42,070 bases of DNA from a virus (taxonomy: Duplodnaviria; Caudoviricetes): positions 1 through 42,070 of IMG/VR virus record IMGVR_UViG_3300033067_001197. One strand, given 5' to 3'. The notes under the pieces were generated by a model. That model saw only the letters and a program-made list of their open reading frames with translations. It ran no database searches and had not been told where the DNA came from. The translations under genes and the position numbers were made by a program. Of this stretch, positions 3,457-42,070 are shown piece by piece (within the stretch, counting starts at the first letter, position 1; each line of letters begins with the position of its first letter).

Positions 3457-3466
3457 CTTGTAGCTA

Positions 3467-3522: not shown

Positions 3523-3849
3523 ATGAGCCTAGATGTATGGTTAAAAGATCCCCTCACAGATACGGAACTTTTCGAGGCAAATATAACCCATAATTTGAAT
3601 CGAATGGCCGAAGCGGCGGGTTTTTATGAAGCCTGTTGGAGGCCGGAGGAGATCCACATCACAACGGCGAGAGAGTTGGCTCCGTATTTGAGGGAGGGGC
3701 TTATTAAACTCGTAGAGGACCCGGAGAAGTATGAGGAATATAATGCGCCCAATGGTTGGGGATTGTATGAACACTTTGTTCCATGGGTATTTGAATACTG
3801 GCGAGCGTGTTGTAGGTGGCCCGATGCAAAGGTTTTTGTGAGCCGATAG
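3523..3849 (+). CDS. conserved phage hypothetical protein
   Basis: MSLDV..ANITHNL..MA..AG.Y..WRPEE..NGWG.YE pattern recalled from many phages; AAGGAG SD. Confidence 0.8.
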   Translation: MSLDVWLKDPLTDTELFEANITHNLNRMAEAAGFYEACWRPEEIHITTARELAPYLREGLIKLVEDPEKYEEYNAPNGWGLYEHFVPWVFEYWRACCRWPDAKVFVSR

Positions 3850-3861
3850 GAGATAAAACAA

Positions 3862-4035
3862 ATGAATAGGAGAATGTTTTTTGCGCTCTTAAAAAATCCA
3901 CCAGTAAAAACTGCTCTATCGGTACAAGCGCAGTTAGACGAGATATTAAATTTTTGGACTAACGCGACGTATGAGGAGACAGAGAGAGGGGTGTGGAAGT
4001 ACAAAGTTTTAGATTTTAAATCACAGGTGGCATAA
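3862..4035 (+). CDS. small protein, 57 aa, starting MNRRMFF
   Basis: Translated by hand; AGGAG SD; fills the gap exactly. Confidence 0.7.
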   Translation: MNRRMFFALLKNPPVKTALSVQAQLDEILNFWTNATYEETERGVWKYKVLDFKSQVA

Positions 4036-4036
4036 A

Positions 4037-4633
4037 GTGAATTCCAAGCCCAGAGCCTGTTGCAGTTGTAGCTTACATGGTACCTCGTTCGGCTTCGTTT
4101 ACGACATTGATCCCCCCGAGCCAGATTTTTACCTCATCCGAAGGCAACCCACAAAAGATGAGGTGAACGCAGGGGAAGCTGTTCTTAAAAACTACTGGGA
4201 GGAATTACTACCAGAAGGTGCGGAGAAGTGTAATGTAGGTTACACTTCTCTCATCCGGTGTTCTTATGATGCCCAAAAGATACCAGTTTCACTCCTTAAA
4301 ATTATAAACATCTGTAGAGTCCACGATGCGGGAATTGATCGGTTCGACCCAAACGCTTTCATCATTACCTATGACATAAATGATGCGTTCAAAATCCCCG
4401 CCTACAAGGTCTTCATAAAGAGGGCGCTTGAGATCGCTAAGTTGTTGAAAACAAAGGGGTTACGGCCCGCTGTGTTACTTGGGAGCGAAGTGGCGAAAAC
4501 AATCAATCCCCACCTCTTTGCGGACACTGGTAATCACCGGGGCACAACGTTTAAGGACTGGGTGGGGCACTGGTGGGTGGGGGAGTGGCCGTTTGAAACA
4601 AAAGCGAAGCGATTTGCAAAGGAGATAAAATGA
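4037..4633 (+). CDS. family-4 uracil-DNA glycosylase-like protein (degenerate)
   Basis: CxxCxL..FV..QPxxxExxxG..YTSLIRC..C pattern; VLLG..A motif; upstream of PolA. Confidence 0.6.
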   Translation: MNSKPRACCSCSLHGTSFGFVYDIDPPEPDFYLIRRQPTKDEVNAGEAVLKNYWEELLPEGAEKCNVGYTSLIRCSYDAQKIPVSLLKIINICRVHDAGIDRFDPNAFIITYDINDAFKIPAYKVFIKRALEIAKLLKTKGLRPAVLLGSEVAKTINPHLFADTGNHRGTTFKDWVGHWWVGEWPFETKAKRFAKEIK

Positions 4634-5034
4634 TCGATCATATAAAACCAACACCTCCGCCATCGTGGAAAAAAGAGGGATGGAAGAAATCTTTCATTGA
4701 CATTTTAGATGAAGAATTCTTAATCGAGTGGTGGTGCGATGGTCATTGGTGCGAATTTCGGGCGTATGAAATTTTAAGCGAGGATGAGCAGGGGAGGATC
4801 TATTTCGAGAGAGCCGACGGGAATATATCGAAGGGCTGTATAACCTTCGACCTTAACGAGGCGGAATTGGTAATGAGAGGGCATTATAAGTGGGACGGGT
4901 GTTTTGAGCACAAATATAATCAAGGTCATTGGTGTGGATCGGAGCCGCTTAAGCGCCACATTAAGTTATTGATTTATCTCTACAAGCGGGCGCACTCAGA
5001 GATGGAATCCATGGACCCTTGGGAAGATGAGTGA
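4630..5034 (+). CDS. hypothetical protein
   Basis: AAGGAG SD, ATGA coupling; G.YKWDGC motif. Confidence 0.75.
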   Translation: MIDHIKPTPPPSWKKEGWKKSFIDILDEEFLIEWWCDGHWCEFRAYEILSEDEQGRIYFERADGNISKGCITFDLNEAELVMRGHYKWDGCFEHKYNQGHWCGSEPLKRHIKLLIYLYKRAHSEMESMDPWEDE

Positions 5035-5384
5035 AACGAAGACGAAAAGGTTTGCGAAGGAGATTTAAATATATGAGTGGTTGGGCACAACGGGATGCAG
5101 AACGGAAGGAGGAAGAAGCTAGGAGCGGGTGGAGTAATGATATGTATGATGGTAGAGATATTGACAATATGGTAGCTAGTTTAGATGCTATCGATGACAT
5201 GCTGATCTGCGATTGGATTGCCCCTCCCTTCACATGGTCCCCTGAGGAATACAGAAATGCGATCAATAAACTAGTCTGCTCCCACGCGGATAGGGCAATC
5301 TACTTTGAGCATCAAAGATTAATAAAACTTAATGAGGATTTCTATGGCCCCGCCTTCAAAGAAAACGATGTGCCGTTCACTTAA
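5031..5384 (+). CDS. hypothetical protein
   Basis: GTGA coupling; basic N-terminus. Confidence 0.65.
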   Translation: MKRRRKGLRRRFKYMSGWAQRDAERKEEEARSGWSNDMYDGRDIDNMVASLDAIDDMLICDWIAPPFTWSPEEYRNAINKLVCSHADRAIYFEHQRLIKLNEDFYGPAFKENDVPFT

Positions 5385-5625
5385 AGCTATTCAAAAAGAC
5401 TACCTGCGCCTATCTAAACTAATCGAGGAAGCCAACGTTTCAATTGCAGAATTAAAGAAGGAGGCAAAGGAAGCGGGCTGTAATCACCCAGAAGATTTAG
5501 GCTACTACTGGCAGGAGGATAAAGATGATGGCTACGGGCGTTGGTGGAAGCTTGATAAGAAACGTTGTAAACTTTGTGGGTGTGAATTTTATAGGTATCT
5601 GGGAGAGTGGAGGAGTTGGGAATGA
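5368..5625 (+). CDS. small putative zinc-binding protein
   Basis: CNHP..CKLC after a coiled segment; stop overlaps the PolA ATG; start placed at ATG 5368. Confidence 0.65.
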   Translation: MCRSLKAIQKDYLRLSKLIEEANVSIAELKKEAKEAGCNHPEDLGYYWQEDKDDGYGRWWKLDKKRCKLCGCEFYRYLGEWRSWE

Positions 5626-6836
5626 AAAAACAACAACTATCCCTTTTCTCCCCTGAAGAGGGAACCAAATTCACCCCCACCCTCAAAGAAACAAAAAACG
5701 AAAGTCTAGTAGCGAAAGGTTTTATCCTCTCACCAAAGAGCGCAAAAACCTTTAAGCGCAAGTCCAGAGCGGATGGGATTTACCTTCCAGATGAGAAAAA
5801 GCCCCTCACTTATGGTTTAAAATTTGAAGACAAACGGCAACGGATTCCAGAATGGGCATTACCAAAAATCAGTCTTTCACGCCAACGTGTATTAGAGATC
5901 ATTGAGGAAACCGATTCGATGGGGTTAGATTTCGAGTACAACCCAACGACTCGAAAACTCTCTATCGTAGGTGTGGCGAATAAAACCGAATGTGCCTCTT
6001 GTAAGTGGGATAAGGAGATTGGAGCCGCACTCATTAAAAAATCAAAGAATCCCAAAACCCGTTTCGTGGGGCACTTTGTCTTAGGTGCCGATAAGCCCGT
6101 TTTAGAGGAAGCGATGGAGGAAGAAACTCCTCTTTGGCTCTGGGAAGATTCGATGATTGCTCACTACTTGTGTGCAAGTTCTTTAGCGAAGGCTCCAGGT
6201 AAGGAGGCGGATAGTGATGGAGCACTTGGGTTCATGAGCCTAGGCTTTGCGGCACACCTTTGGACGAATTTAATACAGTGGAAAGAATGTAGAGGCTTAT
6301 ATTGTGAAGGACCGTGCCCCAGTCATGACGTGTTCGGATATAATGCAGTGGACTCTTGGGCTGGACTTGAGGTTTTCGATAACTGTGTGGGGTTTATGTC
6401 CACCAAAGGAATCCCTATGCGGGTTTACGAAGAACATAAGGAACTCGCTTTAAATTTCTGTCTCGCCGCTGAGAAACGGGGGATGATCGTTGACCTCGAT
6501 TACGCGCGGAAACTCGAAGATGAGATGGAAAAGAAGCAGGAGAACCTATTCCCCAAGGGTAACCCCCGATTCAACCCACGGAGTAACATTCAAGTGGTGA
6601 AGTGGTTTGAGAAGAATGGGGTCAAACTTGCCGCGAATGACAAAGGAACTATCGAGCTAGCTTTGGAGGCTCGAATTCATGAGACACTTGGTTTGACCTC
6701 TATTGGGGAAATCGATGACGAAAGTGAGGCGATGATGGATGAGGTCACTAGAGCCCTCTATGATCTTTATATTTTCAAATCGATGGGGAAAGGAACCGAT
6801 GCTTGGGTTGCGGAGAAATACATAACCTATGAGTAA
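5622..6836 (+). CDS. polA: DNA polymerase family A, N-terminal part (3'-5' exonuclease + thumb)
   Basis: ExoI GLDFE, ExoII HFVLGAD, ExoIII YNAVD, EKRGMIVD, FNPRSNIQV; GGAGG SD and ATGA overlap at 5622. Confidence 0.9.
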   Translation: MKKQQLSLFSPEEGTKFTPTLKETKNESLVAKGFILSPKSAKTFKRKSRADGIYLPDEKKPLTYGLKFEDKRQRIPEWALPKISLSRQRVLEIIEETDSMGLDFEYNPTTRKLSIVGVANKTECASCKWDKEIGAALIKKSKNPKTRFVGHFVLGADKPVLEEAMEEETPLWLWEDSMIAHYLCASSLAKAPGKEADSDGALGFMSLGFAAHLWTNLIQWKECRGLYCEGPCPSHDVFGYNAVDSWAGLEVFDNCVGFMSTKGIPMRVYEEHKELALNFCLAAEKRGMIVDLDYARKLEDEMEKKQENLFPKGNPRFNPRSNIQVVKWFEKNGVKLAANDKGTIELALEARIHETLGLTSIGEIDDESEAMMDEVTRALYDLYIFKSMGKGTDAWVAEKYITYE

Positions 6837-7020
6837 GACACTATTTTATGTTCGTTTGGGTCGTTGGACAGTTCGGGGAGCATTTGCTTGGTACGACATG
6901 TGGGTTGGCGCATTTTGGGATCAACAAAAAGAAGTGCTCTATGTCTGTCCGCTACCCTGCTGCGTCTTACAGATCAAAAAATGGCCTGTATTTGATTTAC
7001 CGAGTGAGGCAAACAGGTGA
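6829..7020 (+). CDS. small aromatic-rich protein inserted between the polA halves
   Basis: FAWYDMWVGAFWD..LYVCPLP; overlaps both neighbours. Confidence 0.75.
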   Translation: MSKTLFYVRLGRWTVRGAFAWYDMWVGAFWDQQKEVLYVCPLPCCVLQIKKWPVFDLPSEANR

Positions 7021-8075
7021 TACCAAAAATTCATGCTAGGTGGGTCTTCACAGGGGCCTCCACAATGCGCCTCTCATCATCAAGGCCCAATTTAACAAAC
7101 ATTCCCGCTAGGGGGTGGGGGAAGGATGTTAAGAAGATCTTTGTGCCCCCACCAGGGAAAATCTATCTGAGTGCAGATGCCTCGAATTTAGAAACCCGCA
7201 TCGTTCTCGATAACGCGGGAATCGACACTCGAACCATCACAACGGATGCTTTCAAATGGCTTGTCTCCCAGGCGAGGGAAGCGTTTGAGGAAGCGGGGAA
7301 GATCGCAGGTAAATCCGCCCGTGATATGGCGAAGATTGTAAGTCACGGCTCGAATTACGGCGCGGGCATAAAGCTATTTGATCCCTATGAAGTCTCTACT
7401 CCAGTGGTAAAAAATCAAATAGCGGAAGGGGCTTTGGAGATCCATGAGGATTGGATCTATTGCGGGAAAGTAGTTGGCTTCACAGGGGTCCGCTTAGCTG
7501 AGATTCTCTTTAGGTTGAATAAGAAAACCCCCCGCAAGCAGGCTTTTGAGTTACGAAGGAAGGCGCTACGGATTCAAAAGGCGTATTTTGACAATTTCCC
7601 CATTCGAGCGTGGCAACAAAAAGTTCTCGCTAAAGCAGAGCAGGGGTTTATCCAAACTAGGTGGGGCTCCTATCTCACCCTGATCGAATCCCCAGTTGAA
7701 AACGCAAAGATTGCTCTCGCCAAAATTGGGCAAGGCGAGGGGGCAGAGTATGTACAGGGGAAGCAAATCGAATTGCTCCGCAAGGTTTGTAATAAGAATG
7801 TAACAATGGATGCCCAGGTACATGACGAAGTATTACTTGCGATCCCAAAGGATTACCCGAAGGATGGAATTCGTGAGATAGTTGAAATTTTACACGGGGA
7901 GTCTCATCGCATCCCTGGGTTCTACTGTCCTTGGAAAAGTCGATTATGCCTCAATTGGGGAACAAAGTTAAAAGAAAATTGCTCTTGTAGAGGCGAGTTC
8001 TATCTTCGTCCCACAGGAGGGGATCTTGTGTGGACATGTGATAAGTGCGAAAGGGAGGAGGAGTTTGATGGATAG
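7017..8075 (+). CDS. polA: DNA polymerase family A, C-terminal part (palm/fingers) with C-terminal Zn ribbon
   Basis: TMRLSSSRPNLTNIP, motif A ADASNLETR, motif B RDMAKIVSHGSNYG, motif C QVHDE; GAGG SD and GTGA overlap. Confidence 0.92.
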   Translation: MIPKIHARWVFTGASTMRLSSSRPNLTNIPARGWGKDVKKIFVPPPGKIYLSADASNLETRIVLDNAGIDTRTITTDAFKWLVSQAREAFEEAGKIAGKSARDMAKIVSHGSNYGAGIKLFDPYEVSTPVVKNQIAEGALEIHEDWIYCGKVVGFTGVRLAEILFRLNKKTPRKQAFELRRKALRIQKAYFDNFPIRAWQQKVLAKAEQGFIQTRWGSYLTLIESPVENAKIALAKIGQGEGAEYVQGKQIELLRKVCNKNVTMDAQVHDEVLLAIPKDYPKDGIREIVEILHGESHRIPGFYCPWKSRLCLNWGTKLKENCSCRGEFYLRPTGGDLVWTCDKCEREEEFDG

Positions 8076-17277: not shown

Positions 17278-18132
17278 TTAGTAAATTCTCCACCATTGGT
17301 TCCCCCGGTGATCGCCCACTATCGTATAACTAATGAAAGGCGCGGAGGAGATGAAGGACGCGAAATTATCAATATTCTCACTCCCCCCGATGGTGATTGA
17401 ATTCGCATCGGTGGAGATTTTTTTAAAATTTAAAACCGACCCATCAGGGAAGGCTTTGACAGGGGGAAGAGTTGCAACTACACCCCCAGATGTGGTATCG
17501 AGAAAATAAGTAACCCCACCTATTGTGGGCACCTCGAAGGAGGCGGTATAGGTGGCGATTTTTGAACCAAGGGGCACAACAGTGGTGGCTACGCTTGATT
17601 GGAAATCTTTAAGGGAGACCACTCCCGAGGAATGGAGAGTTCCCACGGTGATAACCACAGGCATTCTCTGAGAGGCGGGAACAAAGATTTCCCCCGGAGA
17701 GGTATCGAATATCACCGGGGCACTATAGCGAATAAGCGTAGAGAGGTTGATGTCGTTTATATTTTGAAGCGATGAGATGCGGTTAAAATCCGCAGAGGCC
17801 CACACTTGAACCTGAACACGATCAAGAACCTCAAGAGTTTCATCATTCCATGTTAGCGTGAGTTGTGCCCCACCGATAACCGATGTATTCCGTGCGAGAG
17901 TTAACCCTGTGACATTTGGTAATCGTCTTCCTGCTCCAGGTTGAGGGAGAATCCCCCCGCCCTCAAAGGATTTATTCTGATTCAAAAGACGGTCAAAATC
18001 ACTCCCAGGAGTTTGCACTAGGGGGGTTCTATTCGCCTCGTGTTCGACTTGTTTAAGCCGCTCATCGATTTTCTTCACATACTGTGTGAGGCGATCCTCG
18101 ATGGAATTCATCACTGACGAAGGAGAGCGCAT
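17278..18132 (-). CDS. tail/fibre-attachment structural protein
   Basis: N-terminal coiled coil, Fn3-like middle, C-terminal TLP..FKKI..I.I.G..NID..W.I fibre-type module. Confidence 0.6.
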   Translation of the reverse strand: MRSPSSVMNSIEDRLTQYVKKIDERLKQVEHEANRTPLVQTPGSDFDRLLNQNKSFEGGGILPQPGAGRRLPNVTGLTLARNTSVIGGAQLTLTWNDETLEVLDRVQVQVWASADFNRISSLQNINDINLSTLIRYSAPVIFDTSPGEIFVPASQRMPVVITVGTLHSSGVVSLKDFQSSVATTVVPLGSKIATYTASFEVPTIGGVTYFLDTTSGGVVATLPPVKAFPDGSVLNFKKISTDANSITIGGSENIDNFASFISSAPFISYTIVGDHRGNQWWRIY

Positions 18133-25070: not shown

Positions 25071-25271
25071 TTACTTAATAAATTCCTTCCACAATGTAAA
25101 GAGAGTCAAAAGGACGCTATACGCCCCAATGCCCCCCATCAAGTACTTCTCAACATTCCTTAACCGATTTTCATGATCCTTTAACATCTCTTGTTGCCCA
25201 TCAACAACGGACTCCAATTTTTCGATCAATCTATCAAACTCTTCTCTTATCACCGTTGTTAGATTTTCCAT
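25071..25271 (-). CDS. XhlA-like small membrane protein (possible holin)
   Basis: Coiled coil DHENRLRNVEK then one C-terminal TM segment. Confidence 0.55.
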   Translation of the reverse strand: MENLTTVIREEFDRLIEKLESVVDGQQEMLKDHENRLRNVEKYLMGGIGAYSVLLTLFTLWKEFIK

Positions 25272-25284
25272 TTCTCTAATCTCT

Positions 25285-25689
25285 TTAGTTAACATCTGGT
25301 GGATCACTCCCCACACTTGGCGCGGTTGCGGTAATCGAGGGAGGAGTGAAGGTGTCCGTGGTTACGGTAAAAGTTGCGCTTGGCGTGGAGGTCATCAATT
25401 TTTTGTTAACATCACAAAGCCAAGCGACATAAACTGTGTTCGGGGGCACAATATCAGAAGTATAGAATACCTTCGTAGTGTTATCTGCCTTCCCTTGGCG
25501 AATTCGGATCATGTAAAACGGGGGGAGTTTCTCCGGTGAGGTGAGGTCCCCAGGTGTTACGCTAGGCCAGTTCTCCTCATCCCTCACTGGAGGGACAACG
25601 CCGATAAGGAGCCATCCGTCGAAATTATCCCCATTACTCCAGGTAAAGAGATCGGATTGTGAAACGGTGGATTTCCTAGGGGCGCTCAT
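25285..25689 (-). CDS. hypothetical beta-rich (possibly virion) protein
   Basis: NG..FDG.L..PPNT.Y pattern; T/P-rich tail. Confidence 0.65.
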   Translation of the reverse strand: MSAPRKSTVSQSDLFTWSNGDNFDGWLLIGVVPPVRDEENWPSVTPGDLTSPEKLPPFYMIRIRQGKADNTTKVFYTSDIVPPNTVYVAWLCDVNKKLMTSTPSATFTVTTDTFTPPSITATAPSVGSDPPDVN

Positions 25690-25898: not shown

Positions 25899-26612
25899 CT
25901 ATTTTACACCAATCGGGATGGTGGAAATTAGCTTGCCGTCTTCGGCTTGGGCGGGTTTAAAATTTGAACGATCTGGCTGATAGTCATCAATGGAGAGTAG
26001 TTGCTGAACCAGATGATGAGTTTGTACCTTGGGGGCCACATAAACCGGGATGTTTAATTTTTTACATCGCAGACAAAACGAATAATCCTCACTTAGCCCC
26101 CCAATAGTATCGAAAGGAGCCTCCTTGAGTTCATCTGCGATTCGATCAAAAACAACACGATCTATTAATAATCCTCCCCCACCCACTGCGCCCACAGGAA
26201 AAGCGTCCACATCTCTAGGAAAATCATGAATAGGTAAGAGATGATCGTGTTCGTCCCATAGTCCCATAACAGGTCCGAAGGGGGCATTCTTATATTGGTA
26301 TATGCAGGAAATAACTTGTGCCCCAATCTTCTCCTTTATATTCATCAACCTAACAAGGGTGTCAGGTGCGAAGGCATGGTCACAATCGCTCATAAAAATA
26401 AAGTCGCCTTTCATGTTCTGTGCGAGAGTATTGCGCCCCAAAATATGCCAGGAACATTGAGCCTTATCCAAATGAATGTATTCCCCCGGTTTACATTTTT
26501 GTATATGGGTATAGTAAACCATGTCCAAGTACGAATCGCTCCACTTACTGTAGGTTACATCAGCCCACATACGAGCGATTGTACCAATAGGTTTTAAAAC
26601 TTCAAGTGACAT
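25899..26612 (-). CDS. glycosyltransferase, GT-A fold (GT2-like)
   Basis: RN.LA, FIFMSDCD (DxD), GGGGLLI.R.VF, SEDYSFC, C-terminal His. Confidence 0.88.
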   Translation of the reverse strand: MSLEVLKPIGTIARMWADVTYSKWSDSYLDMVYYTHIQKCKPGEYIHLDKAQCSWHILGRNTLAQNMKGDFIFMSDCDHAFAPDTLVRLMNIKEKIGAQVISCIYQYKNAPFGPVMGLWDEHDHLLPIHDFPRDVDAFPVGAVGGGGLLIDRVVFDRIADELKEAPFDTIGGLSEDYSFCLRCKKLNIPVYVAPKVQTHHLVQQLLSIDDYQPDRSNFKPAQAEDGKLISTIPIGVK

Positions 26613-27676
26613 TACTTTAACCACCCTTCATACTGCGCCACAACTCGGTCCCAGTCAAAGGTATCTCGGGCATCCTGCATCATTTCGTTTCTCCATTCCA
26701 CTTGAGGATTTTTAATAAGATCACAAACTTTCTGACACATCAATGAGCGGGTGAGGGGGTCATTTTGAGGAATAGTTGGATAGCCAAAGCCGTGGAATAC
26801 GTTTTGCTCTAGCGCCCAGTAGCGCGTGAAAACCGGAATGCATCCCATCGCCTGAGCTTCCATAGAAACACAGCACGAGGTTTCTGGCCAATCTGTTGGA
26901 TACCACCAGATGTTAGAGGACAGATATTCCCTAAACAATTGATCCTGCCCAATGCGACCTAAGAAATTAACTCCAGGCTGAGACATGAGCCGCTCGATTT
27001 CCTCTTTCATCGGAACAAACCAAGCATTTCCTCCCTGTAACTCTAAAATCTTAAGCATATTCGCAAACCCATAGGCCACCGATAGCTCTGCCTCTGGACA
27101 CTGTTCCCGAATACGAAACCAGTTTTTCAAAACTAATAAAAGCCCTCTATCTGGCGAGGAAGCGTAGATTAATTTGTTTGGATTACGAGGGATGTTTTCT
27201 TTTTCAATTCGTAGAATATCATCCACAGGAATGCCGTTTGTCGAGAGAAATGTTTTATCCTTCAACTGCGGATACATTGCCTGAGTGTACTGGACGTGAG
27301 TTTTACAGAGACAGATGTAGCGATCAATTTTCGCTAATTGTTCCTCAGTAAATGGATACGATACATCCTGGGCCACGAAAAATATCTGGCTTGATGGGTG
27401 AAATTCATTGTTCAAGAATGAGGGATCTCTAAAGACGATCCAGTTCATAGGTTCGGTTTTAGTATCCGCTAGTTTGTGATCTTGCCAAGGTACATTGTGG
27501 GGGCCAATTAAAACCCCTCCTGAGGGAACTGGGGAGTAAGAAATTACCTTATGACCCCTCTTACCAAGACGCGAAACGATTTCGATATGACTTCGCTCCG
27601 AGCCTCCTATACCTCGGTCCTTTGCGGTCCAATCCCAATTTTCTAGCGTGAAACTTGAGTATACTGCTGTTCGCAA
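26612..27676 (-). CDS. glycosyltransferase, GT-B fold (GT4-like)
   Basis: GIGGSE, YASSPDRGL, YP..ETSCCVSMEAQAMG (E-x7-E). Confidence 0.9.
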   Translation of the reverse strand: MRTAVYSSFTLENWDWTAKDRGIGGSERSHIEIVSRLGKRGHKVISYSPVPSGGVLIGPHNVPWQDHKLADTKTEPMNWIVFRDPSFLNNEFHPSSQIFFVAQDVSYPFTEEQLAKIDRYICLCKTHVQYTQAMYPQLKDKTFLSTNGIPVDDILRIEKENIPRNPNKLIYASSPDRGLLLVLKNWFRIREQCPEAELSVAYGFANMLKILELQGGNAWFVPMKEEIERLMSQPGVNFLGRIGQDQLFREYLSSNIWWYPTDWPETSCCVSMEAQAMGCIPVFTRYWALEQNVFHGFGYPTIPQNDPLTRSLMCQKVCDLIKNPQVEWRNEMMQDARDTFDWDRVVAQYEGWLK

Positions 27677-28408: not shown

Positions 28409-28909
28409 TTAATCAGCGCTCATCCTTAGGCGGATAACCGCGTTAAAGCCTTTCCCCGCGCTACCCGGCACGGCACTAGCTCCCGACTGCATGGTCCAGT
28501 TGATAGCTAGCTGGTCACCCGCCGAAACCGCAGCGCTTGCCTGATTGATCTGGGCGCTCACAATATTAGCGGCGCTCGGGCCAAGGGTACATTGTCGCAC
28601 CACAAGAGCAGAGGTGGCGACTGGTCCGGTGATAGCAGGAACAGTGCTAAGGACAGAGGCGGAATTCTTACGAAGATCCGCACTTACAGTCCCACTAACG
28701 AACCCTGAGGCACTAAGAGCGACGTTAACTACGCTAATGTAAAAATCCACAATGCGCCCATTAGCAGGACAAGTAAACACAGGAACTAGCGTATTGGCCG
28801 AAGTGACGTGAACGCTAGATTCGTTAGCTAGAATTGGCAGCACGATTACACGCTCATCATAACCGTAGCCGCGTACTGCATCATTACCGAGGAACAATCT
28901 ATCTGGCAT
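28409..28909 (-). CDS. probable capsid decoration protein
   Basis: Directly after the MCP; AAGGAG SD; S/A/V-rich beta protein. Confidence 0.6.
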   Translation of the reverse strand: MPDRLFLGNDAVRGYGYDERVIVLPILANESSVHVTSANTLVPVFTCPANGRIVDFYISVVNVALSASGFVSGTVSADLRKNSASVLSTVPAITGPVATSALVVRQCTLGPSAANIVSAQINQASAAVSAGDQLAINWTMQSGASAVPGSAGKGFNAVIRLRMSAD

Positions 28910-28940
28910 GGTATATTTTTCTCCTTATTTCCTTTCCTTC

Positions 28941-29936
28941 TTACAGACCCAACTGTGTGGGAACATCCCAGGTGATATAACGGAAATTCCCGCCGATACC
29001 CGAGGGGCCTTCAGTTACGACACCAGCGAAAGTATAACGATAAGAAACGATGGTTCCAATTTCGCCAGTGGGATCGTACAGCGTGGGGCCTCGGGAACTG
29101 ATGGTGTTAATTTTAAACTTCTGAGTGTTTGGATCGGTTACATCAGAGGGACCCACACCCTCAAGAGAGGTATAACCAACACCATTCTTTGAGAACAGAT
29201 AAACGCGATAAGTGTTCGGTGAACCGGAAGTAACCGCAACGTTGGTGGTGGTCATGAACCGAACGCCGTTAAAGGTATCCATCGTGTCCTTGCGGGCATT
29301 AGCGTTCATGAAGGACTTGGGGACCCCGGTGTACTTGAACATATCAGCGTAACCGTTTGCGGCGGGGTCGTTGATTACGTCAAACCATGTATAAGGGTGC
29401 ATGATGCACAGGTAGTTGCCGTCATCGAAGGGTAGGAAATCCCGACCTTGGAGACGCGCCACACCACCCCTAATATCTGCCGCAGTGAGGTAGGTATCGA
29501 GAGCGGAGATGACGGTGGAGGCGTTGAAATTGTCCATATTCGCCCGCATCACCAAATCGTTGCTTAGCCCCGCCTGATAGCCAAGCAAAGCTGAAGCATT
29601 CTCAGCGATAGAATCAATTGCGGTGTCTTGGACGAAGGTGGAGAGGGAGATGAAGGCGGAATACTGAGAGAGATCCGCAGCCACGATTCGGGAACTTATC
29701 GTTAGGGACGTTCCAACGGTTCCTTCTCGTGAGGTGGAGGTAGAACCTGCCATGTTATCATAACGGAACCACTGGCAGGTTCGACCAACGCGCTTTGGCA
29801 TCATATCACTGAAGGCGGGTTCCTTGAATCGGAAAGTCTTCTGTGCGCGATCCAGCCCGACTTTAGAGTAATACGTAGCTACTAGGTGGGCTAACCCAGT
29901 GCTCGTGGTTGTCATGCCTACAGGTACGTATGCCAT
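28941..29936 (-). CDS. major capsid protein (HK97 fold, N4-gp56-like)
   Basis: 331 aa; MP..G.T..W.RY, EG, QY, LG.QAG..D, Y..IMHP..D, GVRF..T, DP..G motifs. Confidence 0.88.
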   Translation of the reverse strand: MAYVPVGMTTTSTGLAHLVATYYSKVGLDRAQKTFRFKEPAFSDMMPKRVGRTCQWFRYDNMAGSTSTSREGTVGTSLTISSRIVAADLSQYSAFISLSTFVQDTAIDSIAENASALLGYQAGLSNDLVMRANMDNFNASTVISALDTYLTAADIRGGVARLQGRDFLPFDDGNYLCIMHPYTWFDVINDPAANGYADMFKYTGVPKSFMNANARKDTMDTFNGVRFMTTTNVAVTSGSPNTYRVYLFSKNGVGYTSLEGVGPSDVTDPNTQKFKINTISSRGPTLYDPTGEIGTIVSYRYTFAGVVTEGPSGIGGNFRYITWDVPTQLGL

Positions 29937-31503: not shown

Positions 31504-31547
31504 CTTTAAAAAATAAAACCTTTCCTAAATCTAATTATAACTCTGCG

Positions 31548-34469: not shown

Positions 34470-36353
34470 TCACTTAAATTGAGCGTAGAAACTCTCAAAG
34501 AGCGTGTCGGGGGTCAAAATGTTTGTGCAATCCGAGTTTACGGGGTTGGTTTCCATTGGGAGATTACCTGTGGCGACCATAAAAGCCACTTCTGCCCCAG
34601 GGTCATCGAAGACATTTACGTAGTAATTGGGCGAAGTAGGCTTTCCCCACTCTTTTCCGTACCATTCACGAGCGTCAAAGATATCTGCGATGGCATCTAA
34701 AATGTCATCTGAGGTACTTTTTGGGAATTCTCGAAGTTCTTGAATGAGCCCCTCCCAAGCGGCATCATGAATATAGTCACGAACGAAACGGAGATCCCCC
34801 TTTCGATAGGGACTTTGGAGGGTGAGGCGGATTCGTTCCTCTTTTTCCTTGAAAGGATGGCGTTTTGTCCACTTAATGTAAGGTTTATAATTTGAAGGAT
34901 TTGTTTGCCATTCCCTTTCCAAGGCGACTTTTAAACCACGGGTGAAATTTACATCCTCCATTAAGAGATACGAGGGGCGAAGGTGGTTACAAAGTTTGAT
35001 GAGAGCCTCTACGCTCTGGTGAGGTTCCCATTTTTCCCGAATAATTTTGTCAACATAGGTACGACCTGCGCGATCGATGGTGGCGTGAACGAAAGCGGTC
35101 CAATTTGCGCGTTCCGAAACGGTTTCCGCGAAGTCCACACTCAAAACCGAGAAGGCTTTTATGATTAAATTTTCATACTCGTGTGTGGGAACTATGGCAG
35201 GACGAGTGTAGACACCATCTTTTTCAGTGATGGGAAAATCTGGAACCCCTCCTCTGCCGCCAATGGGGCGATTTCTCATCTGAGCACTAAAGTTTGTGGG
35301 ATCTTCTTTTTCGTTAAGAAGTAATTTCTTAACCGATCCATAGCGGCCCAAGAGATGGGGAGGGAAGGAGGGGATGGGGAGCCCTTTGTCATCCTTCTTA
35401 TCTGGAAGGTTCAGTTCCTCAGGGAGATACTTTCGTTTTTCTGGATCGAGATCCGGCATGAAAACGCCTCGGCAGTAAACTTCCCACTCAGTTTCCCCGT
35501 CTTCACGTAATTGACGTTCTCTGCGGCCCAAGATATCGCCATAAAGATCCCCGAAGTGATATCGGGTTCCCTCTACGTCGATCCAATAACCTAGACCTGT
35601 GAGGAGGTATTCCGCTTTGCCGAATTTATCAATAGTCTTCTTACATTGATCTAAGGTTTCTGTATTTTCAGGCTCCACTACGTCTGAGTATTTACAAACT
35701 TCAAAGTGGTATCCAGCAAGTCCAGCGTCAAGGGATGCGGCCATAACACTCTTTTCCCGTCGTGTGCCGCTTCGTTTATGCTCAATATCCCAGATGTCGA
35801 AATAAGCCTTTGTTCCATAGTCATAGACTTTCTCATCAGGGGGGCACAGTTCGGGGAATAGGGCGCGGAATTTCCCATTGAACTGGAAGTGTTCCTTAAT
35901 GGCCTTAAGGATTGTTTCCGCCTTTTCAAGTTTGTACTGGAAGATTGCAAGGCACGCTTGGGGGTAATTGATAAGCCATTGAATCCCGTGGCATTCGCAA
36001 TTGATGGTAGTTTTAAACGATCCACGGTGATCTAGGATTAATCTACGACGCGCCCCCACAAGGTTCTCCATATTCGGAACAACGGGGGTATAATTCCATT
36101 CCCCATCTCTATAGACATCGTTTTCCTCAAATTGTCCCTTGGTGGGCTTAGGGAATTTCTGAAGTTTACTAATGAGGGGGCCGTTGAATTCCTCCGAGAC
36201 ATCGGGTTTATTCAACACTGTTGTGGCGAGGTAAAGGAGATTAGTCCTCGCCCTCCACCTTGAAGCCTTTAATTCCGCCCTTTCGCGGGGGGATAACTTT
36301 GATAGATCGATGCGATCATTCTTTTTGATCTCATCGAGAAGTTCTTTTGCCAT
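34470..36353 (-). CDS. terL: terminase large subunit
   Basis: RGSFKTT Walker A, GYHF..SDVV Walker B, GTRY..DLYG, RNase-H-like VDFA..MED..DDILDA. Confidence 0.9.
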   Translation of the reverse strand: MAKELLDEIKKNDRIDLSKLSPRERAELKASRWRARTNLLYLATTVLNKPDVSEEFNGPLISKLQKFPKPTKGQFEENDVYRDGEWNYTPVVPNMENLVGARRRLILDHRGSFKTTINCECHGIQWLINYPQACLAIFQYKLEKAETILKAIKEHFQFNGKFRALFPELCPPDEKVYDYGTKAYFDIWDIEHKRSGTRREKSVMAASLDAGLAGYHFEVCKYSDVVEPENTETLDQCKKTIDKFGKAEYLLTGLGYWIDVEGTRYHFGDLYGDILGRRERQLREDGETEWEVYCRGVFMPDLDPEKRKYLPEELNLPDKKDDKGLPIPSFPPHLLGRYGSVKKLLLNEKEDPTNFSAQMRNRPIGGRGGVPDFPITEKDGVYTRPAIVPTHEYENLIIKAFSVLSVDFAETVSERANWTAFVHATIDRAGRTYVDKIIREKWEPHQSVEALIKLCNHLRPSYLLMEDVNFTRGLKVALEREWQTNPSNYKPYIKWTKRHPFKEKEERIRLTLQSPYRKGDLRFVRDYIHDAAWEGLIQELREFPKSTSDDILDAIADIFDAREWYGKEWGKPTSPNYYVNVFDDPGAEVAFMVATGNLPMETNPVNSDCTNILTPDTLFESFYAQFK

Positions 36354-36368
36354 TTAAAATTTAAAACC

Positions 36369-38567
36369 TTACGGAGTAGTGAGGGTGACCCCATTACGAT
36401 TATATACCCCCGAGGCGCAAGATACGGTCCAATAATAACGGGTATTGCCGCTAAGTCCTGTGATCGCAACTGTGCGGCTAAGAGCGCCCCCTGAATCGGT
36501 TACCGTTGTGGGGGACGACATTGAGGATTTTAAACTCACCGAGACATCGCATGTGGAGGTATCATAAGCGACGTAGCGGAAGGTGAGGGAGGAACCTGAG
36601 GGGGTGATGGAGGAGATTTTAAAATTTAAAAACGCGGGAGTTTGGGCCGCATCAGTTGAGACTCCTGCGGTGCTTTGATTCACCTCTGTGACATTTGCTC
36701 CGGGGGAGATTCCTAACGTTCCCCATCGTAAATAAGGGCTTGTGTTTTTTAAAGCGTAATCGTTTGAGGAGTAGTTGTTAAAGTCCACATCAGAATACGC
36801 AGTAGGGAAGCCACAATTTCCGTTATACGTGGCCCCACTTCCTGTGATTTCATTCGTTGAGGCGGGACAAGGCATCGGAGCAGAGGGGGTATCGTTATTG
36901 TATGCAAAGTTCATGATGGAACTTTGTTTAGAATAAACCGTTTTACTCTGATTATTTACAATAACGTTTCTTATTACATTGTATCCAGGAAAGAGGCCGT
37001 TTGGAAGCGAATTCCAAAGGAAACCCCCAGAGACATCATTATAGAATCCATAGTCATTCCATGGGAAGATGTTATCTGTTAGGACAAAATTCCCCGGACG
37101 ATTTCCGGCGACGGAGCCGAATAGATACCCAACTCTGGCTTCGATTGGGGCGCGGGAAATTACAGTGTTTCGAGTGTGGAAGAGATTCGTGCCGATCTCT
37201 GGGGACCAAAATAAACCCCCACCCCATTTGGAGCCGATTCCCTCAGCGGCAGGGAGAGTGAAGGGGTCGTCACCGATTTCAGCAAAAACATTATTATTCA
37301 TCGTAATGTTATTGAATCCAAGGTAGTAATTACCGATTTGGCCCAAGGAAATAAGCCACGGTGCGCGGCGTCCAAAGTTGTTTTGAATAACTACATGGCC
37401 TACGGTGGCGGCGGGTTCAAAAGTCAAAACTGCGTCGTTATCTACGAGGTTAAAAAGGAACATCGCGCCGTATTGATTAAACGCCGCTGGTTGCCATGTG
37501 TTTTCAAAGTAGTTACCTTCGATCCAAACGCGCCACGCATTTTTGAGTTCAAAGATGTTCTTTTGATAATAATTTATCGTAGGAAACGCCCCCGAGAGAA
37601 TGGAGGTCCACACGCCAGAGTCACAGCGCCAATAGGAGGGGGTTGAGGTGTTTTTATAATATTCACCTCCGTTTGAATCCCACATACAATCCCAGGTGGG
37701 GTCTACGGTGCCTTCGCGGACGCGCCATCTCCAGGTTCGGTAGTAGTGGTTGCCCTTGACGAAGAATCCATTTATGCGAATGCCTTGTATGTTAGGGACT
37801 GCCCCACCGAAAAGGGTTGTAATGGAGGCCGATTCGAGGTGGTTGTTTTCTAGGAAGATGGGGCCTTGAGTGTTCCATCCTCCGATGGCGTTAGATTCGT
37901 TCGCGTCGATTTTTATATCGGAGAACCAGGAATTTTTAACGATTAGCTTTCGTGTGTGGGCGAGAATGCCTCTTCGGGGGCCAGCAGTGGAAAGGGCGTT
38001 ACCGTGGAGATAGCATTGTTCGATGATGATATTTGAGGGAAGTTGAGCGGGATCGTTATCGGCGGCGGAATTGGACACAAGGGATTCTGCGCCAAAACGA
38101 ATGAGGGGGCGGGAATTGCCAAAGGTGGCGTGGGCTGTGAATTCAATACCTTGGAAGTGATAATATTCCGCATATTGCTCCGCTTCGAGGGTGGTGGTGG
38201 AGCCTGTGTCAGCATAGAAGGTCGCGAGGTTTGAGAGATCGGAGGGGGTTACACGGGCTCCTGAGGTTAGATTTGGAACCCCAGAGGAGCGGATCATTAT
38301 ATGGGGGCCACGAGAGGAGACGCACGAGGATTTATATTTTAACTTGATTGGGGTTCCCCCTATAGAGATGGTTTCTCCCGCGTTGATTTGGATAACATCC
38401 CCACAAGTGGCGTCAACGATTGCTTGATTGATCCCGCTCACACTGAGCCCATAGGTACACCCAGACGCACAAACGGTGTAGAGAGTGGCATTTGCCACCC
38501 CCGCACCTACAGTTAAACCCAAACCTACAACTAAACCCAGTAACATCAATGAAAAGTTTTTCCGCAT
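36369..38567 (-). CDS. right-handed beta-helix (tailspike/polysaccharide lyase-like) protein with signal peptide and C-terminal Fn3-like domain
   Basis: MRKNFSLMLLGLVVGLGLTVGAGVANA|T; Asn-ladder repeats (IIIEQCYLH, VKNSWFS, LENNHLE, IEGNYFEN); TGLSGNTRYYW. Confidence 0.75.
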   Translation of the reverse strand: MRKNFSLMLLGLVVGLGLTVGAGVANATLYTVCASGCTYGLSVSGINQAIVDATCGDVIQINAGETISIGGTPIKLKYKSSCVSSRGPHIMIRSSGVPNLTSGARVTPSDLSNLATFYADTGSTTTLEAEQYAEYYHFQGIEFTAHATFGNSRPLIRFGAESLVSNSAADNDPAQLPSNIIIEQCYLHGNALSTAGPRRGILAHTRKLIVKNSWFSDIKIDANESNAIGGWNTQGPIFLENNHLESASITTLFGGAVPNIQGIRINGFFVKGNHYYRTWRWRVREGTVDPTWDCMWDSNGGEYYKNTSTPSYWRCDSGVWTSILSGAFPTINYYQKNIFELKNAWRVWIEGNYFENTWQPAAFNQYGAMFLFNLVDNDAVLTFEPAATVGHVVIQNNFGRRAPWLISLGQIGNYYLGFNNITMNNNVFAEIGDDPFTLPAAEGIGSKWGGGLFWSPEIGTNLFHTRNTVISRAPIEARVGYLFGSVAGNRPGNFVLTDNIFPWNDYGFYNDVSGGFLWNSLPNGLFPGYNVIRNVIVNNQSKTVYSKQSSIMNFAYNNDTPSAPMPCPASTNEITGSGATYNGNCGFPTAYSDVDFNNYSSNDYALKNTSPYLRWGTLGISPGANVTEVNQSTAGVSTDAAQTPAFLNFKISSITPSGSSLTFRYVAYDTSTCDVSVSLKSSMSSPTTVTDSGGALSRTVAITGLSGNTRYYWTVSCASGVYNRNGVTLTTP

Positions 38568-38568
38568 A

Positions 38569-40188
38569 TTAAGGTACCTGCACTTCCACAGACGCCACAT
38601 AGGGTAGGATAAACCCGCTAGTGTTATCATCCCTGGTTAGCTGGATAGTCATCGGTCTACCACCTGCACACCCTGTAGTGGTAAGCGCAATTGTGCGAGT
38701 GTAGGAATTCCCCGCTGCTACAGTTCCAGACGGTAAAGTTTGCGAGGCATTGTACGCCGGTGGAGTTGATCCGCTGGTATAGCACTTAGTCGCTATCTTT
38801 AGCACGGGATCAGTTGAACCGTTAGATCCAAATGATATGGAAAAGGTAACCGTACCACTAGTCCAGTTAGCCGGTAAGGTAAAGGTGTTAGTCGCGTAAC
38901 GCTGAGAAGCATCCGCCAGCGAATACCATCTAATACCGCATTCCGCTAAACTGCTAGTTGCCGGACAGGTCACATTCCCCACAGTTAGCGCGTTCACCAT
39001 AGTATCTGAGAAATTCCATTGGGAATCCCATGGTGTGCTTGTGGCGTTATACTGTCCAAACGGGAAGTTAAACATTACCGAACTACTTCCGCTCCCTGTA
39101 ACCTGTGTCCATGTATTTGTGGTAGTACACAGATACAAGTTTTGCCCTGCTGTTACCCCTGAGGTGCGGAAATAGGTGTCGCCAGTGGTGCAAGATCCCC
39201 CCGGTGCTCCACTTCCGGTACGATTTGGGGCGGTTCGAGTGGAGAGGACGAAGGAATTGCTTCCGAGAAAAGCATTTGTGCCCGATGTTCTGGCAACAGT
39301 TGCGTCCACATTTATGGTTTGGGTGCCACCGAGAGTGGTGATTGAAATTCCATCCCCCTCTTGTGAATCCGCGCCGCTATTGAGAAACCTCCGAGTGTCC
39401 GTTACGGTATCCCATGCGCCCGTGGTGATGGAAACTTCCGCGAATTGAGTTCCATCGGAGGGAACCACAGGGGTGGTGGCTTGATTCATCACACATGTGG
39501 CGGAACAAGAGAGAACGAGTCCGGCTGATGCGGGGGCGAGGATAACGGAGTAGCCTTGTGGGGTTCCGTAGATAACTGCGGTTCCGCTTCCGGTTCCAGC
39601 AACAGTTCCTCCACTGGTGTACGAGCCGTTTCCTGTGGAGCCATTGAGGGCAAGGGTGGTGCTGCTTAGTTTCTCCACAACCCATGTGCCATTCGCCGCA
39701 GTGTTGCCCCCCACTCCGGAAACCATAACTGTATCTCCTGTACGGATTGAAACGGAGGTCATGGAGGAGGTGGTGAGGACGATTGGGGAGGCGTTTGTGG
39801 CCCCGCTTACGCTTAAGGAGGTGATGGTGAAAGTGTTACCGGGGTGGGTTGCGGCAGAGGTTGTACCATGGCCCCAAATTCCAGAGGCGAGAGTTAGGAC
39901 CGTTGTGGAGGTTTTGGTTACCTTTAAATCGGTGATGTTTGCGGATGAGGTGGTGCCCCCAGAGATGGTGCAATCTGTGCGGGAATCGCTGGAATTATCC
40001 ACACATGTTACTCCGCTTCCGGTGAAGTTGACGGTGTTCCTCTGGGTTAGCGCAGAGGCTTCATCCATGATGGTTTGATAGGCTTGGACGATTGAGGAGG
40101 TTACGGCGGGGATGGAAGAGATTTGGGAGATCCCGAGGGCTGAGAGGAAGAGGAGGATTCCCGCGATGGTGTAGTTACGGACGTTCAT
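38569..40188 (-). CDS. tail-fibre-like S/T/G-rich protein with signal peptide
   Basis: MNVRNYTIAGILLFLSALGIS|Q; NFTGSGVT, ATNASPIV..GNTAANGTW and GD.YF..C..NTW fibre-type modules. Confidence 0.7.
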   Translation of the reverse strand: MNVRNYTIAGILLFLSALGISQISSIPAVTSSIVQAYQTIMDEASALTQRNTVNFTGSGVTCVDNSSDSRTDCTISGGTTSSANITDLKVTKTSTTVLTLASGIWGHGTTSAATHPGNTFTITSLSVSGATNASPIVLTTSSMTSVSIRTGDTVMVSGVGGNTAANGTWVVEKLSSTTLALNGSTGNGSYTSGGTVAGTGSGTAVIYGTPQGYSVILAPASAGLVLSCSATCVMNQATTPVVPSDGTQFAEVSITTGAWDTVTDTRRFLNSGADSQEGDGISITTLGGTQTINVDATVARTSGTNAFLGSNSFVLSTRTAPNRTGSGAPGGSCTTGDTYFRTSGVTAGQNLYLCTTTNTWTQVTGSGSSSVMFNFPFGQYNATSTPWDSQWNFSDTMVNALTVGNVTCPATSSLAECGIRWYSLADASQRYATNTFTLPANWTSGTVTFSISFGSNGSTDPVLKIATKCYTSGSTPPAYNASQTLPSGTVAAGNSYTRTIALTTTGCAGGRPMTIQLTRDDNTSGFILPYVASVEVQVP

Positions 40189-40191
40189 TTT

Positions 40192-40605
40192 TTAAATCCT
40201 TCGAGCGTTCACGGAGGCGTGGAGAGCGGTGGAGGAGGAGGAACTCCAGGTGAAACCGTCATCCATGAAAACACCTTCTGGGAAGGCCATTACGTAGGTG
40301 GTATGGGCCGCGATGTTAACTGTTGAAAGGAGAGATTTGGGGGTTCCAGCGCGATCTTGAACTGTGAGAGTTACGTCGCTACCGGAGGTGTTGGTGACGG
40401 TGATTTGGAAAATCCAAGTATCAGTTGTGGAAACGGAGGTGGTGGAGTTGGGGACCACTTGTAGAGCTTGGGACATATTGATGTTACCCACGCTAAATTT
40501 GGTGGAATTGCTTGCTCCCATCGCCACGGGTAAGGGGGATTGGACGAGGGAAATTCCGAGGAGGATGAGGAGAGCGAAGATGATGGTCTTTTGGAAGCGT
40601 TCCAT
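40192..40605 (-). CDS. small beta-sandwich protein with signal peptide
   Basis: MERFQKTIIFALLILLGISLV; ITVTN..TLTVQD..FPEGVF..G. Confidence 0.7.
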   Translation of the reverse strand: MERFQKTIIFALLILLGISLVQSPLPVAMGASNSTKFSVGNINMSQALQVVPNSTTSVSTTDTWIFQITVTNTSGSDVTLTVQDRAGTPKSLLSTVNIAAHTTYVMAFPEGVFMDDGFTWSSSSSTALHASVNARRI

Positions 40606-40613
40606 TTTAAAAT

Positions 40614-40910
40614 TTAAACCTTTGTGGCTTTTTTGTATTCCGCCTTACGTGCCTTTTCGGTCGCGTCACTGGTTTCCTTTGCGGCTTTCGCGGTGGCTTG
40701 GGCGCTTTGGGGGAAAAGGGTTAGAACGGATTCTGCGAGAGATTCGATGTGGGCCACCACAAGAGAATGAACATCTGAATATTTTGGAACCGGAGGAGTG
40801 CCTTGGGTTTGTGTTGCGATGAACTGTGTGGCCGCATCCACGAATTCAGGGGGGAATTCAAATTTCTGAGTATCAACTCCGATGTCGATTTTGAGGGTTA
40901 GTTTGGGCAT
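40614..40910 (-). CDS. small helical protein, possible fibre assembly chaperone
   Basis: Directly downstream of the fibre gene and remnant; AAAGGA RBS. Confidence 0.6.
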   Translation of the reverse strand: MPKLTLKIDIGVDTQKFEFPPEFVDAATQFIATQTQGTPPVPKYSDVHSLVVAHIESLAESVLTLFPQSAQATAKAAKETSDATEKARKAEYKKATKV

Positions 40911-40927
40911 CTTTTAAAATCCTTTCG

Positions 40928-40999
40928 TTATTTCCAAGCGGGAATGTAAACGGTGGAACCATCTGAGCTTACGGCGCGAATCCAAGTGTAGGGGGCAGT
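40928..40999 (-). pseudogene. orphan 3' end of a former fibre gene (TAPYTWIRAVSSDGSTVYIPAWK*)
   Basis: Start-less frame resembling fibre C-terminal YIP motifs; its stop sits just before the next gene's RBS. Confidence 0.6.
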
Positions 41000-41020
41000 T
41001 TTTCATGTGATTCTCCCTGA

Positions 41021-42070
41021 TTACGGCGCCCACGTTCCCTTGGTGACCCACGAGCCCGACTCACGGCGCTCGACTACAAGGTTGTTGGCCGAGCGCACAA
41101 AGCGCCAGGATCCATCAGTGCCGGATGCGCCAAAGTAAACAGCGCTTGTGGATGCTCCGATAAAGTCAGACGATGCCGTTACGCTCGTGCCGGATAGCGC
41201 GCCGCCAAACGTTCCGGTGCCCGCCGCATTCACATTGCGCACCCTCGCCCCCGTCGTGCCCACATCACACGCCGCCGAGTTGCCATCACCGGAGCCGCAC
41301 GTGATACCCCCCGCCCCAAGCGTCCAGTAGTTGGTGGAGGAGCCGTTCGTGATGCCGAGGTTGTTGGCGGAGGAGCGGAGCAATCCTAAATCCAAGGTGC
41401 CATCCGCTCCGGAACTGCTACTCCAGTAAACGCCCTTTGCTGACCCGATACGGATGATGTCACCCAGCATTGTAGACTTGGTGGTCCCATTGGACTGTAT
41501 CCAACTGAACTGGCCAATGTTGTCAAACGTAACTCTAGTAACTGCCGCGTTGTCTATCATCGCCAACAGGCTGGTCGTACTCTGCCCCGCACCCGCCCGC
41601 ACCGTTAGCGTGGTGACTCCTGTAGTGGCGGTGGCGTCATACACGTGCAGGGTGTTGACTGGGGAGGTGTTGCCGGGGCCGATGCCCACTGATCCCGTAG
41701 AGCCATCAATCACAATGCGATCGGTGTCATTTGTGCGGATGCGAAACTGCTGGGCACCAAGCGTCCCCATTAAACCAATTGAACCCGCGTACATTCTCAC
41801 CTGCGCCCCGCCAGTGGTGGCTGCAACGACTAGCGATGCGTTATTGGCAGCGGATACTTGCAACCGCGTGTCGCTGTTGTAAAAACTGGTTGTTCCGATG
41901 CCAAGGCGGTCCCCGGCTGCGTCCCAATATAATTGACTTGCGTCCTGAGACAACGTGCCGCTGCTGGACACGTAGGGGATTGCGCCTACGGTAGTGAGGT
42001 TGCTAGCTCCCATAACTGCGGTATCAGGGATAGAGGTTACCTGAGCCACCACAAGAAAAGCAGCAAGGAG
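41021..42070 (-). CDS. tail fibre protein, 5'-truncated at the window edge, with signal-peptide h-region
   Basis: Frame stays open to 42070 (LLAAFLVVA|QVTSIP); RLGIGTT..LQV and VGIG..P..LHV fibre repeats; GSWRF..LVVERRESGSWV C-terminus. Confidence 0.8.
   Translation of the reverse strand, partial: LLAAFLVVAQVTSIPDTAVMGASNLTTVGAIPYVSSSGTLSQDASQLYWDAAGDRLGIGTTSFYNSDTRLQVSAANNASLVVAATTGGAQVRMYAGSIGLMGTLGAQQFRIRTNDTDRIVIDGSTGSVGIGPGNTSPVNTLHVYDATATTGVTTLTVRAGAGQSTTSLLAMIDNAAVTRVTFDNIGQFSWIQSNGTTKSTMLGDIIRIGSAKGVYWSSSSGADGTLDLGLLRSSANNLGITNGSSTNYWTLGAGGITCGSGDGNSAACDVGTTGARVRNVNAAGTGTFGGALSGTSVTASSDFIGASTSAVYFGASGTDGSWRFVRSANNLVVERRESGSWVTKGTWAP

Follow-up and report, generated by a model that had tools for sequence, protein, structure and literature searches.

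Late genes with predicted secretion leaders beside the terminase gene of a partial podophage genome: a candidate exported appendage cassette

We analysed the IMG/VR virus record IMGVR_UViG_3300033067_001197, the whole of which (42,070 bases) is the window referred to below. It is a partial genome of an uncultured podophage, in which the plus strand carries replication genes and the minus strand carries the genes for the large terminase subunit (TerL), portal, major capsid protein (MCP) and adaptors, based on a list of open reading frames (ORFs) and on Pfam and PHROG scans; by our own reading of the labels, the minus strand also holds one nozzle-like and two ejection-like genes. A relative with 73% TerL identity is 53 kb long and rated 82% complete. 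Directly before the TerL gene lies a group of late genes, four of which begin with predicted secretion leaders:

34470..36353, minus strand: TerL, terminase large subunit, the first gene past the cassette, 15 bases after the BH732 stop
36369..38567, minus strand: BH732 (732 aa from MRKNF), predicted Sec leader, right-handed beta-helix and C-terminal FN3-like domain, 11 Cys
38487..38567, minus strand: predicted signal peptide of BH732, residues 1-27, ending in ANA before T28 (alignment)
38569..40188, minus strand: F539 (539 aa), predicted leader and mosaic fibre-like protein with mature start Q-I-S-S-I-P
40126..40188, minus strand: predicted signal peptide of F539, residues 1-21 (sequence and motif alignment)
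40192..40605, minus strand: S137 (137 aa), predicted leader (about residues 1-30) and beta-rich domain of about 105 aa; candidate appendage base
40513..40605, minus strand: predicted signal peptide of S137, its end coinciding with the start of leaderless homologues (family alignment)
40614..40910, minus strand: p98 (98 aa), leaderless, Cys-free, inside the cassette; possible cytoplasmic partner
41021..42070, minus strand: F349 (349 aa), fibre-like, 5' end cut, leader end visible, mature start Q-V-T-S-I-P

An earlier note on this DNA had described four late fibre or spike genes with signal-peptide-like starts and paired cysteines, upstream of the terminase and far from the tail genes. Indeed, the four minus-strand ORFs start as it quoted, these four alone, among the 34 genes scored in the window, carry a strongly hydrophobic segment within their first 16 residues, and the cluster adjoins TerL directly and is 11-24 kb from the tail genes. 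The description needs amendment in that S137 is Cys-free and that the leaderless p98 gene lies inside the cluster. Leaders were called with a heuristic of our own (n-region, hydrophobic h-region, small residues at -3 and -1), not with a trained predictor such as SignalP; applied to 299 core ORFs of relatives, a stricter form of the rule gave 1 false call, and it overlooked an evident leader (L027:6833; L numbers denote the loci compared). By this heuristic and by alignment, the pattern expected for Sec and signal peptidase I is present and is conserved in homologues, and the four leaders are predicted Sec-type secretion signals. The longest BH732 frame starts at 38630, and an AGG plus AT-rich initiation signal precedes 38567. 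Separately, an AT-rich 18-mer is repeated between late genes (36353-36370, 40606-40623 and 31505-31522), where it forms the spacer between AAGG and the start codon.

The BH732 leader is kept while its sequence changes. BH732 had 28 matches; 11 of them cover the full length, with 47-100% identity, and include the window's own cluster. No match was found among annotated phages. The earlier note had proposed that homologues be inspected for hydrophobic N-termini, and a leader is present in 11/11 full-length sequences, varying in sequence, ending in small residues and followed by a fixed mature start. The numbers of Cys are those the note had given (11 in the mature beta-helix protein, 10 in F539 and 2 in F349), and the proposed pairing, which does not come from measured distances, fits spacing and co-variation except for the single C185 of BH732. 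The other Cys of BH732 fall at 33/37, 55/82, 294/315, 567/585 and 673/717; nine of the 11 Cys columns are invariant across the 11 sequences. Both C55 and C82 are lost in two orthologues, two others gain Cys two at a time, and in one orthologue C55 is lost and a new Cys appears elsewhere.

S137 belongs to a family that occurs with and without a leader. A profile search returned 633 representatives; from the best 150, 13 with a long or non-Met start were set aside and 137 were classed, giving 52 leader-bearing members (median 129.5 aa) and 85 leaderless members (median 108 aa), although, on inspection by eye, about five of these calls look mistaken, with errors of both kinds. Many of the leaderless members start with M-A-S-[LN]-S-[TS]-[KR], which matches the residues past the predicted cleavage site of S137, and, traced back as far as the preceding stop, five leaderless frames show no hydrophobic stretch. 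The S137 leader probably ends at residue 30-31, its c-region being long and rich in proline. Exactly two Cys are found in 25/52 leader-bearing compared with 11/85 leaderless members (p=1.5e-5). The atlas clusters nearest to S137 are all viral, and its atlas leads, the PRD1 P5 N-domain (0.76) and XepA (0.79), fall below the atlas threshold; a leaderless homologue had no match among annotated phages. An S137 paralogue precedes a fibre gene, directly or across p98, in L001, L027, L062 and the window, and a leaderless S137 follows the MCP gene in L066. A predicted complex of four S137 copies with residues 22-80 of F539 scored 0.00, with controls that did not fold, and has no weight either way. In L001 (1-1206, minus strand), a near-copy of an S137 paralogue and a leaderless fibre fragment with a Q-V-T-x-I-P start face away from the cassette; candidate explanations are a duplicated or invertible fibre cassette, or an assembly artefact.

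Several fibre-like proteins share the residues that follow the leader. The motif Q-[IVS]-[ST]-S-I-P stands directly after the leader in eight proteins of three fibre types and is a candidate docking peptide; the F349 leader, cut in the window, is visible as a whole in the orthologues of L001 and L006. The ten Cys of F539 form five local pairs by position (62/73, 228/232, 333/354, 408/417 and 469/507), and F349 has one pair (258/268). The first module of F539 recurs in other leader-bearing phage proteins (L012, L026, P0184 and P0185); its N-terminal module weakly matches a ‘tail fiber protein’ record (E 2e-3) as well as P0185, and relatives weakly match tail PHROGs. The names ‘spike’ and ‘fibre’ used by the earlier note are labels drawn from fold and motifs rather than from databases: no Pfam or PHROG fibre match was found for any of the four cassette proteins, nor a PDB fibre match for F539 or F349, and PDB sequence searches with S137, F539, F349, tf284, p134 and b92 gave nothing meaningful. 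The p98 protein is 63-78% conserved in the two closest relatives and occurs only in L001 and L006 among the loci compared.

Cys content differs between fibre-like proteins with and without a leader. In a set of 62 dereplicated fibre-like ORFs, Cys made up 1.66% of residues with a leader (n=21) and 0.92% without (n=41) under automatic calls, and 1.70% (n=19) versus 0.91% (n=43) after four rows were moved by hand (p=8e-6, for rows that share ancestry and are not independent). A Cys-masked search with the stapled fibre motif returned five leader-bearing matches, each with two Cys, and no leaderless comparator.

A quick TerL tree (71 rows) places the window in a 10-row clade (SH-aLRT 100), and leader-bearing genes precede TerL in 6/6 clade members with a complete upstream gene (the window, L001, L002, L027, L029 and L062), the other four contigs being cut at that place. 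Two leaderless genes head the cassette in L001, L027 and L062, and the same genes recur in sister lineages; eight of these lineages (L030, L033, L034, L041, L051, L053, L054 and L060) have leaderless fibre-like genes in the same slot, which is an old appendage cassette. Leader-bearing fibres also occur after MCP or p134, patchily on the tree (L052, L066, L067 and L074), and an unrelated phage, L017, has a leader-bearing cassette between TerL and portal. Because the predicted secretion leaders are conserved and have no counterpart in the matching sister-phage genes, the appendage proteins are likely exported. Predicted Sec export and oxidative folding are well supported by leader conservation, by the leaderless sister genes and by the paired Cys changes.

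Two further arrangements were noted around such genes. Runs of leader-bearing fibre-like or beta-helix late genes occur in unrelated phages: L026 (MW202637) 1388-7055, L007 12521-13765, L012 6985-13090, and L020. L029 (3796-5011), L050 (4022-5238) and L197 (7629-7991) have a 121-aa gene (phrog_24118) and a gene that we take to be patatin-like from its glycine motif, placed between TerL and the leader-bearing protein; these are possible lysis helpers.

BH732 is not a classic tailspike. Its monomer model (pLDDT 74, pTM 0.80) is a right-handed beta-helix with an FN3-like domain, for which there is a weak Pfam match, and Foldseek matches its fold to PL6, PL9 and GH110 enzymes, lacto-N-biosidases and tailspikes. 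The tailspikes (HK620, CBA120 TSP2 and KP32 gp38, E 1e-4 to 1e-3) are likewise right-handed beta-helices; tailspikes are leaderless trimers with an N-terminal virion anchor, whereas BH732 has a leader and no anchor. Its 12 distant viral relatives include eight with a leader (6-31 Cys), three leaderless ones (2, 7 and 11 Cys) and one with an ambiguous start. Residues E224, K336, E340 and K342 are conserved across phage and distant members and are candidate catalytic residues. BH732 is likely an exopolysaccharide (EPS) depolymerase or binder, and is best read as a captured EPS-processing protein, with cellular relatives at 79 loci (25-32% identity).

Comparable gene sets exist in two cultured phages. 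Cellulophaga phage phi18:3 (KC821620, Pachyviridae) resembles the window in having three consecutive leader proteins (gp085-gp087) that lie upstream of TerL (gp098), apart from the tail core; their leaders end before a Gln at +1, and the GenBank notes, on which this claim rests, mark the three as structural by ‘experimental MS/MS proteomics’ (tandem mass spectrometry). It differs in its Bacteroidota host, in the 0-3 Cys of these proteins and in showing no homology to the window proteins tested, and its record is silent on leaders. Tunturiibacter phage Tunturi_1 (PP887698), a cultured Acidobacteriota podophage, also has leader- and Cys-bearing fibre- or spike-type proteins, five in number (gp12-14, gp16 and gp17, with 2-32 Cys); unlike those of the window, they lie in the tail region and not before TerL, and they have no BLAST match to the window proteins. 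Tunturi_3 has leaderless fibres. An appendage role for the cassette is supported by its gene slot and by the MS/MS-annotated precedents. In the excerpts available from the Tunturi paper (PMC11924767; the other papers cited by PMC number are likewise cited for excerpts of their text), ‘mass spectrometry’ does not occur and no passage deals with leaders.

The explanation that we favour, as somewhat more probable than the others combined, is that these proteins are exported by Sec, fold in the periplasm and dock on the particle at lysis. The four leader-bearing genes would form a host-recognition cassette whose products pass through the host Sec pathway. Signal peptidase I would expose on S137 the N-terminal arm that leaderless homologues have from the start, and on three fibre types the shared Q-[IVS]-[ST]-S-I-P peptide, while host Dsb enzymes would form the Cys pairs in the periplasm, where the parts would be stored. 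S137 may attach to the capsid, directly or through a leaderless base protein, and carry the fibres like a head spike; BH732, probably taken from a bacterial EPS-locus family, may bind or cut host capsule, on the particle or beside it. Lysis would then mix the compartments, and the exported parts would dock on finished particles. The adhesin pIII of filamentous phages likewise has a Sec signal and disulfides made by Dsb, but it stays membrane-anchored and is added during extrusion, whereas tailed phages assemble their particles in the cytoplasm and free them by lysis; the P22 tailspike is a tail part able to join finished heads outside the cell. As to the earlier proposal of export, oxidation and docking at lysis, the first two steps are well supported and an appendage role has the support named above, while docking is inferred.

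Candidate docking partners lie among the other late genes:

28409..29936, minus strand: MCP (28941-29936) and its leaderless 166-aa neighbour; candidate docking surface on the head
25285..25689, minus strand: p134, a leaderless stub found family-wide; candidate docking site on the tail
17278..18132, minus strand: tf284, leaderless, Cys-free, behind the nozzle gene; candidate ordinary cytoplasmic tail fibre

We lean modestly towards the head over the tail as docking site, because of the cassette's position at the head operon, because L066 has a leaderless S137 behind MCP, and because the head spike of the Rhodobacter capsulatus gene transfer agent (RcGTA) has the same parts list. In RcGTA, a small jelly-roll base, Rcc01079 (NF048002), binds the capsid by its N-terminus, and the head fibre Rcc01080 plugs in by an N-terminal peptide and binds capsule (PMC7296036). 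Bases of this type are jelly-roll pentamers seated on capsid pentamers. This likeness to S137 and the fibres serves as a working model only; the RcGTA spike has no significant homology to S137, the excerpts of that paper do not mention an export signal (PMC7296036), and the model is an analogy because S137 is not a detectable member of the spike-base family. The alternative candidate dock is p134 on the tail, a stub that has grown into longer fibre-like proteins in L031, L066 and L067. Its similarity to the N-terminal domain of Tunturi_3 gp14/gp15 was not significant, and homology was rejected. For tf284, no match was found in Pfam or PHROG, and its fibre label is given by position.

Several observations weigh against docking on the particle. 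Since the leaderless tail candidates tf284 and p134 are kept, the cassette need not supply the tail. S137 has no Cys, and as a candidate member of the RcGTA spike-base family it was rejected: 1/96 members matched at E 0.017, profile-profile comparison gave a probability of 0.3% and a score of 11.5 within the shuffled range (9.7 +/- 1.9), and the family hidden Markov model scored no better than on reversed sequences. The F539 monomer model is unusable (pLDDT 38). An even Cys count was not significantly commoner with a leader (15/19 versus 28/43, p=0.37), and Cys-rich leaderless relatives exist (11 Cys in L016, 17 in L107); disulfides cannot be the sole reason for export, because S137, the 203-aa fibre of L027 and phi18:3 gp085 are all Cys-free. 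The MS/MS notes for phi18:3 could reflect co-purified material. BH732 lacks an N-terminal virion-anchor domain, its mature chain opening with a beta-helix cap common to cellular relatives; a leader was called in 54/68 of these relatives, and EPS-type neighbours (glycosyltransferase, deacetylase, UDP-glucose dehydrogenase, flippase, ligase or amidotransferase) were found at 16/28 cellular loci scanned (14 without amidotransferase-only cases), in a scan covering 58 of the 122 neighbours listed, most of them selected from the same strand.

The missing anchor, the kinship of BH732 with exported EPS-locus proteins and the retained leaderless tail candidates all favour an alternative in which the proteins are exported and non-structural, acting in the periplasm, at the cell surface or in the lysate. 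The beta-helix would strip host EPS, easing escape and removing receptors, and the fibre-like proteins would mask receptors and block superinfection or re-adsorption; the earlier note had allowed for a secreted depolymerase, and for BH732 this option stays alive. Pantoea stewartii has an EPS enzyme of this sort, the exported beta-helix protein WceF, whose gene belongs to an EPS operon (PMC7949094); like BH732, WceF is an exported right-handed beta-helix, and an EPS setting is frequent for the cellular relatives of BH732, but WceF is cellular and has a Tat signal, whereas BH732 lies in a phage late operon and has an FN3-like domain and five Cys pairs. Similarly, the mosaic adhesive trimer (MAT) fibres of Bdellovibrio are fibre-like proteins with signal peptides that sit on cells as surface adhesins, with a conserved beta domain of about 130 aa after the signal peptide and an S74 domain in most (PMC10769870); no S74 match appeared in our Pfam scan. 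We nevertheless consider a purely non-structural role unlikely, if a serious contender, since leaderless versions of S137, with a similar N-terminal arm, fill the same slot and the nearest clusters are viral only, which fits one virion role better than two, since leader-bearing fibres occupy the tail slot of relatives and of the lytic Tunturi_1, and since phi18:3 has its MS/MS notes.

It is also conceivable that the leaders act as uncleaved membrane anchors, holding the proteins in the inner membrane or in membrane vesicles or patches that accompany the progeny. Hydrophobic N-termini alone do not show cleavage, the c-region of the S137 leader is long and proline-rich, and several BH732 orthologues lack a basic n-region. 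This is improbable given the small -3/-1 residues before a fixed mature start in 11/11 BH732 sequences, the Gln at +1 in eight fibre proteins and the leaderless homologues that begin at the predicted cleavage site. Still more improbable is that the leaders are leftovers of host-protein capture or start-codon artefacts, with cytoplasmic folding from internal starts: BH732 is related to cellular secreted proteins and, in the window, an internal Met lies close to the leader end of S137 and of F349, but orthologues have Ile, Val, Leu or Phe in its place, the leaders diverge in sequence and keep their character across about 50% identity, and S137 members have leaders though their nearest clusters are all viral.

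The host is probably a member of the Acidobacteriota, which is a guess because no prophage in 401 genomes fixes it. The best cultured MCP match is that of Tunturi_3, an Acidobacteriota podophage (28% identity), and 48 of the 79 cellular loci related to BH732 are from Acidobacteriota (our own count by record title). No TerL relative was found in the genome collection, nor in the 401 genomes of the class of one Acidoferrales bin.

Other features of the window and its relatives were recorded as well. One GT2 and one GT4 glycosyltransferase gene lie within the structural operon (25899-27676, and also in L005, L025 and L028), where glycosylation of virion proteins is possible. The DNA polymerase A gene is divided (5607-8075), its two ORFs of 409 and 352 aa flanking a 63-aa ORF; it is likewise split in a relative (L197 2-2514), where the second part seems to hold what we take to be an intein-like insertion. 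TerL is 130-300 aa longer than usual in L035 (9965-12559), L039 (5575-7833) and L062 (7112-9892), probably through insertions such as inteins. An 81-aa protein (25071-25316) with a C-terminal hydrophobic stretch is holin-like by shape, with no PHROG match; among the window genes that were scanned, none was recognised as an endolysin.

The accepted view is that tailed-phage particles are assembled entirely in the cytoplasm. We judge the balance to tip slightly towards a second, extracytoplasmic branch of morphogenesis, in which appendages handled by Sec and Dsb would be stored in the periplasm and snapped on at lysis, the S137 leader would be gained or lost without change to the docking arm, and captured host secreted enzymes would be mounted. 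Phage appendage cassettes are known; the export route would be new, as no paper describing export of tailed-phage appendages was found in a search judged by titles and abstract openings, with subscription literature mostly outside it, and in the excerpts of one paper (PMC12309495) a signal peptide is mentioned only for Lom. If true, an export-then-dock route would add a step to the phage life cycle, turn the host's Sec and Dsb genes into phage-dependence factors and explain how disulfide-rich or host-derived adhesins reach virions, and annotation pipelines may be misfiling such genes as morons or membrane proteins. The window adds a clean internal control, one small family with and without a leader in the same gene slot, and the route would be directly testable in the cultured phages Tunturi_1 and phi18:3.

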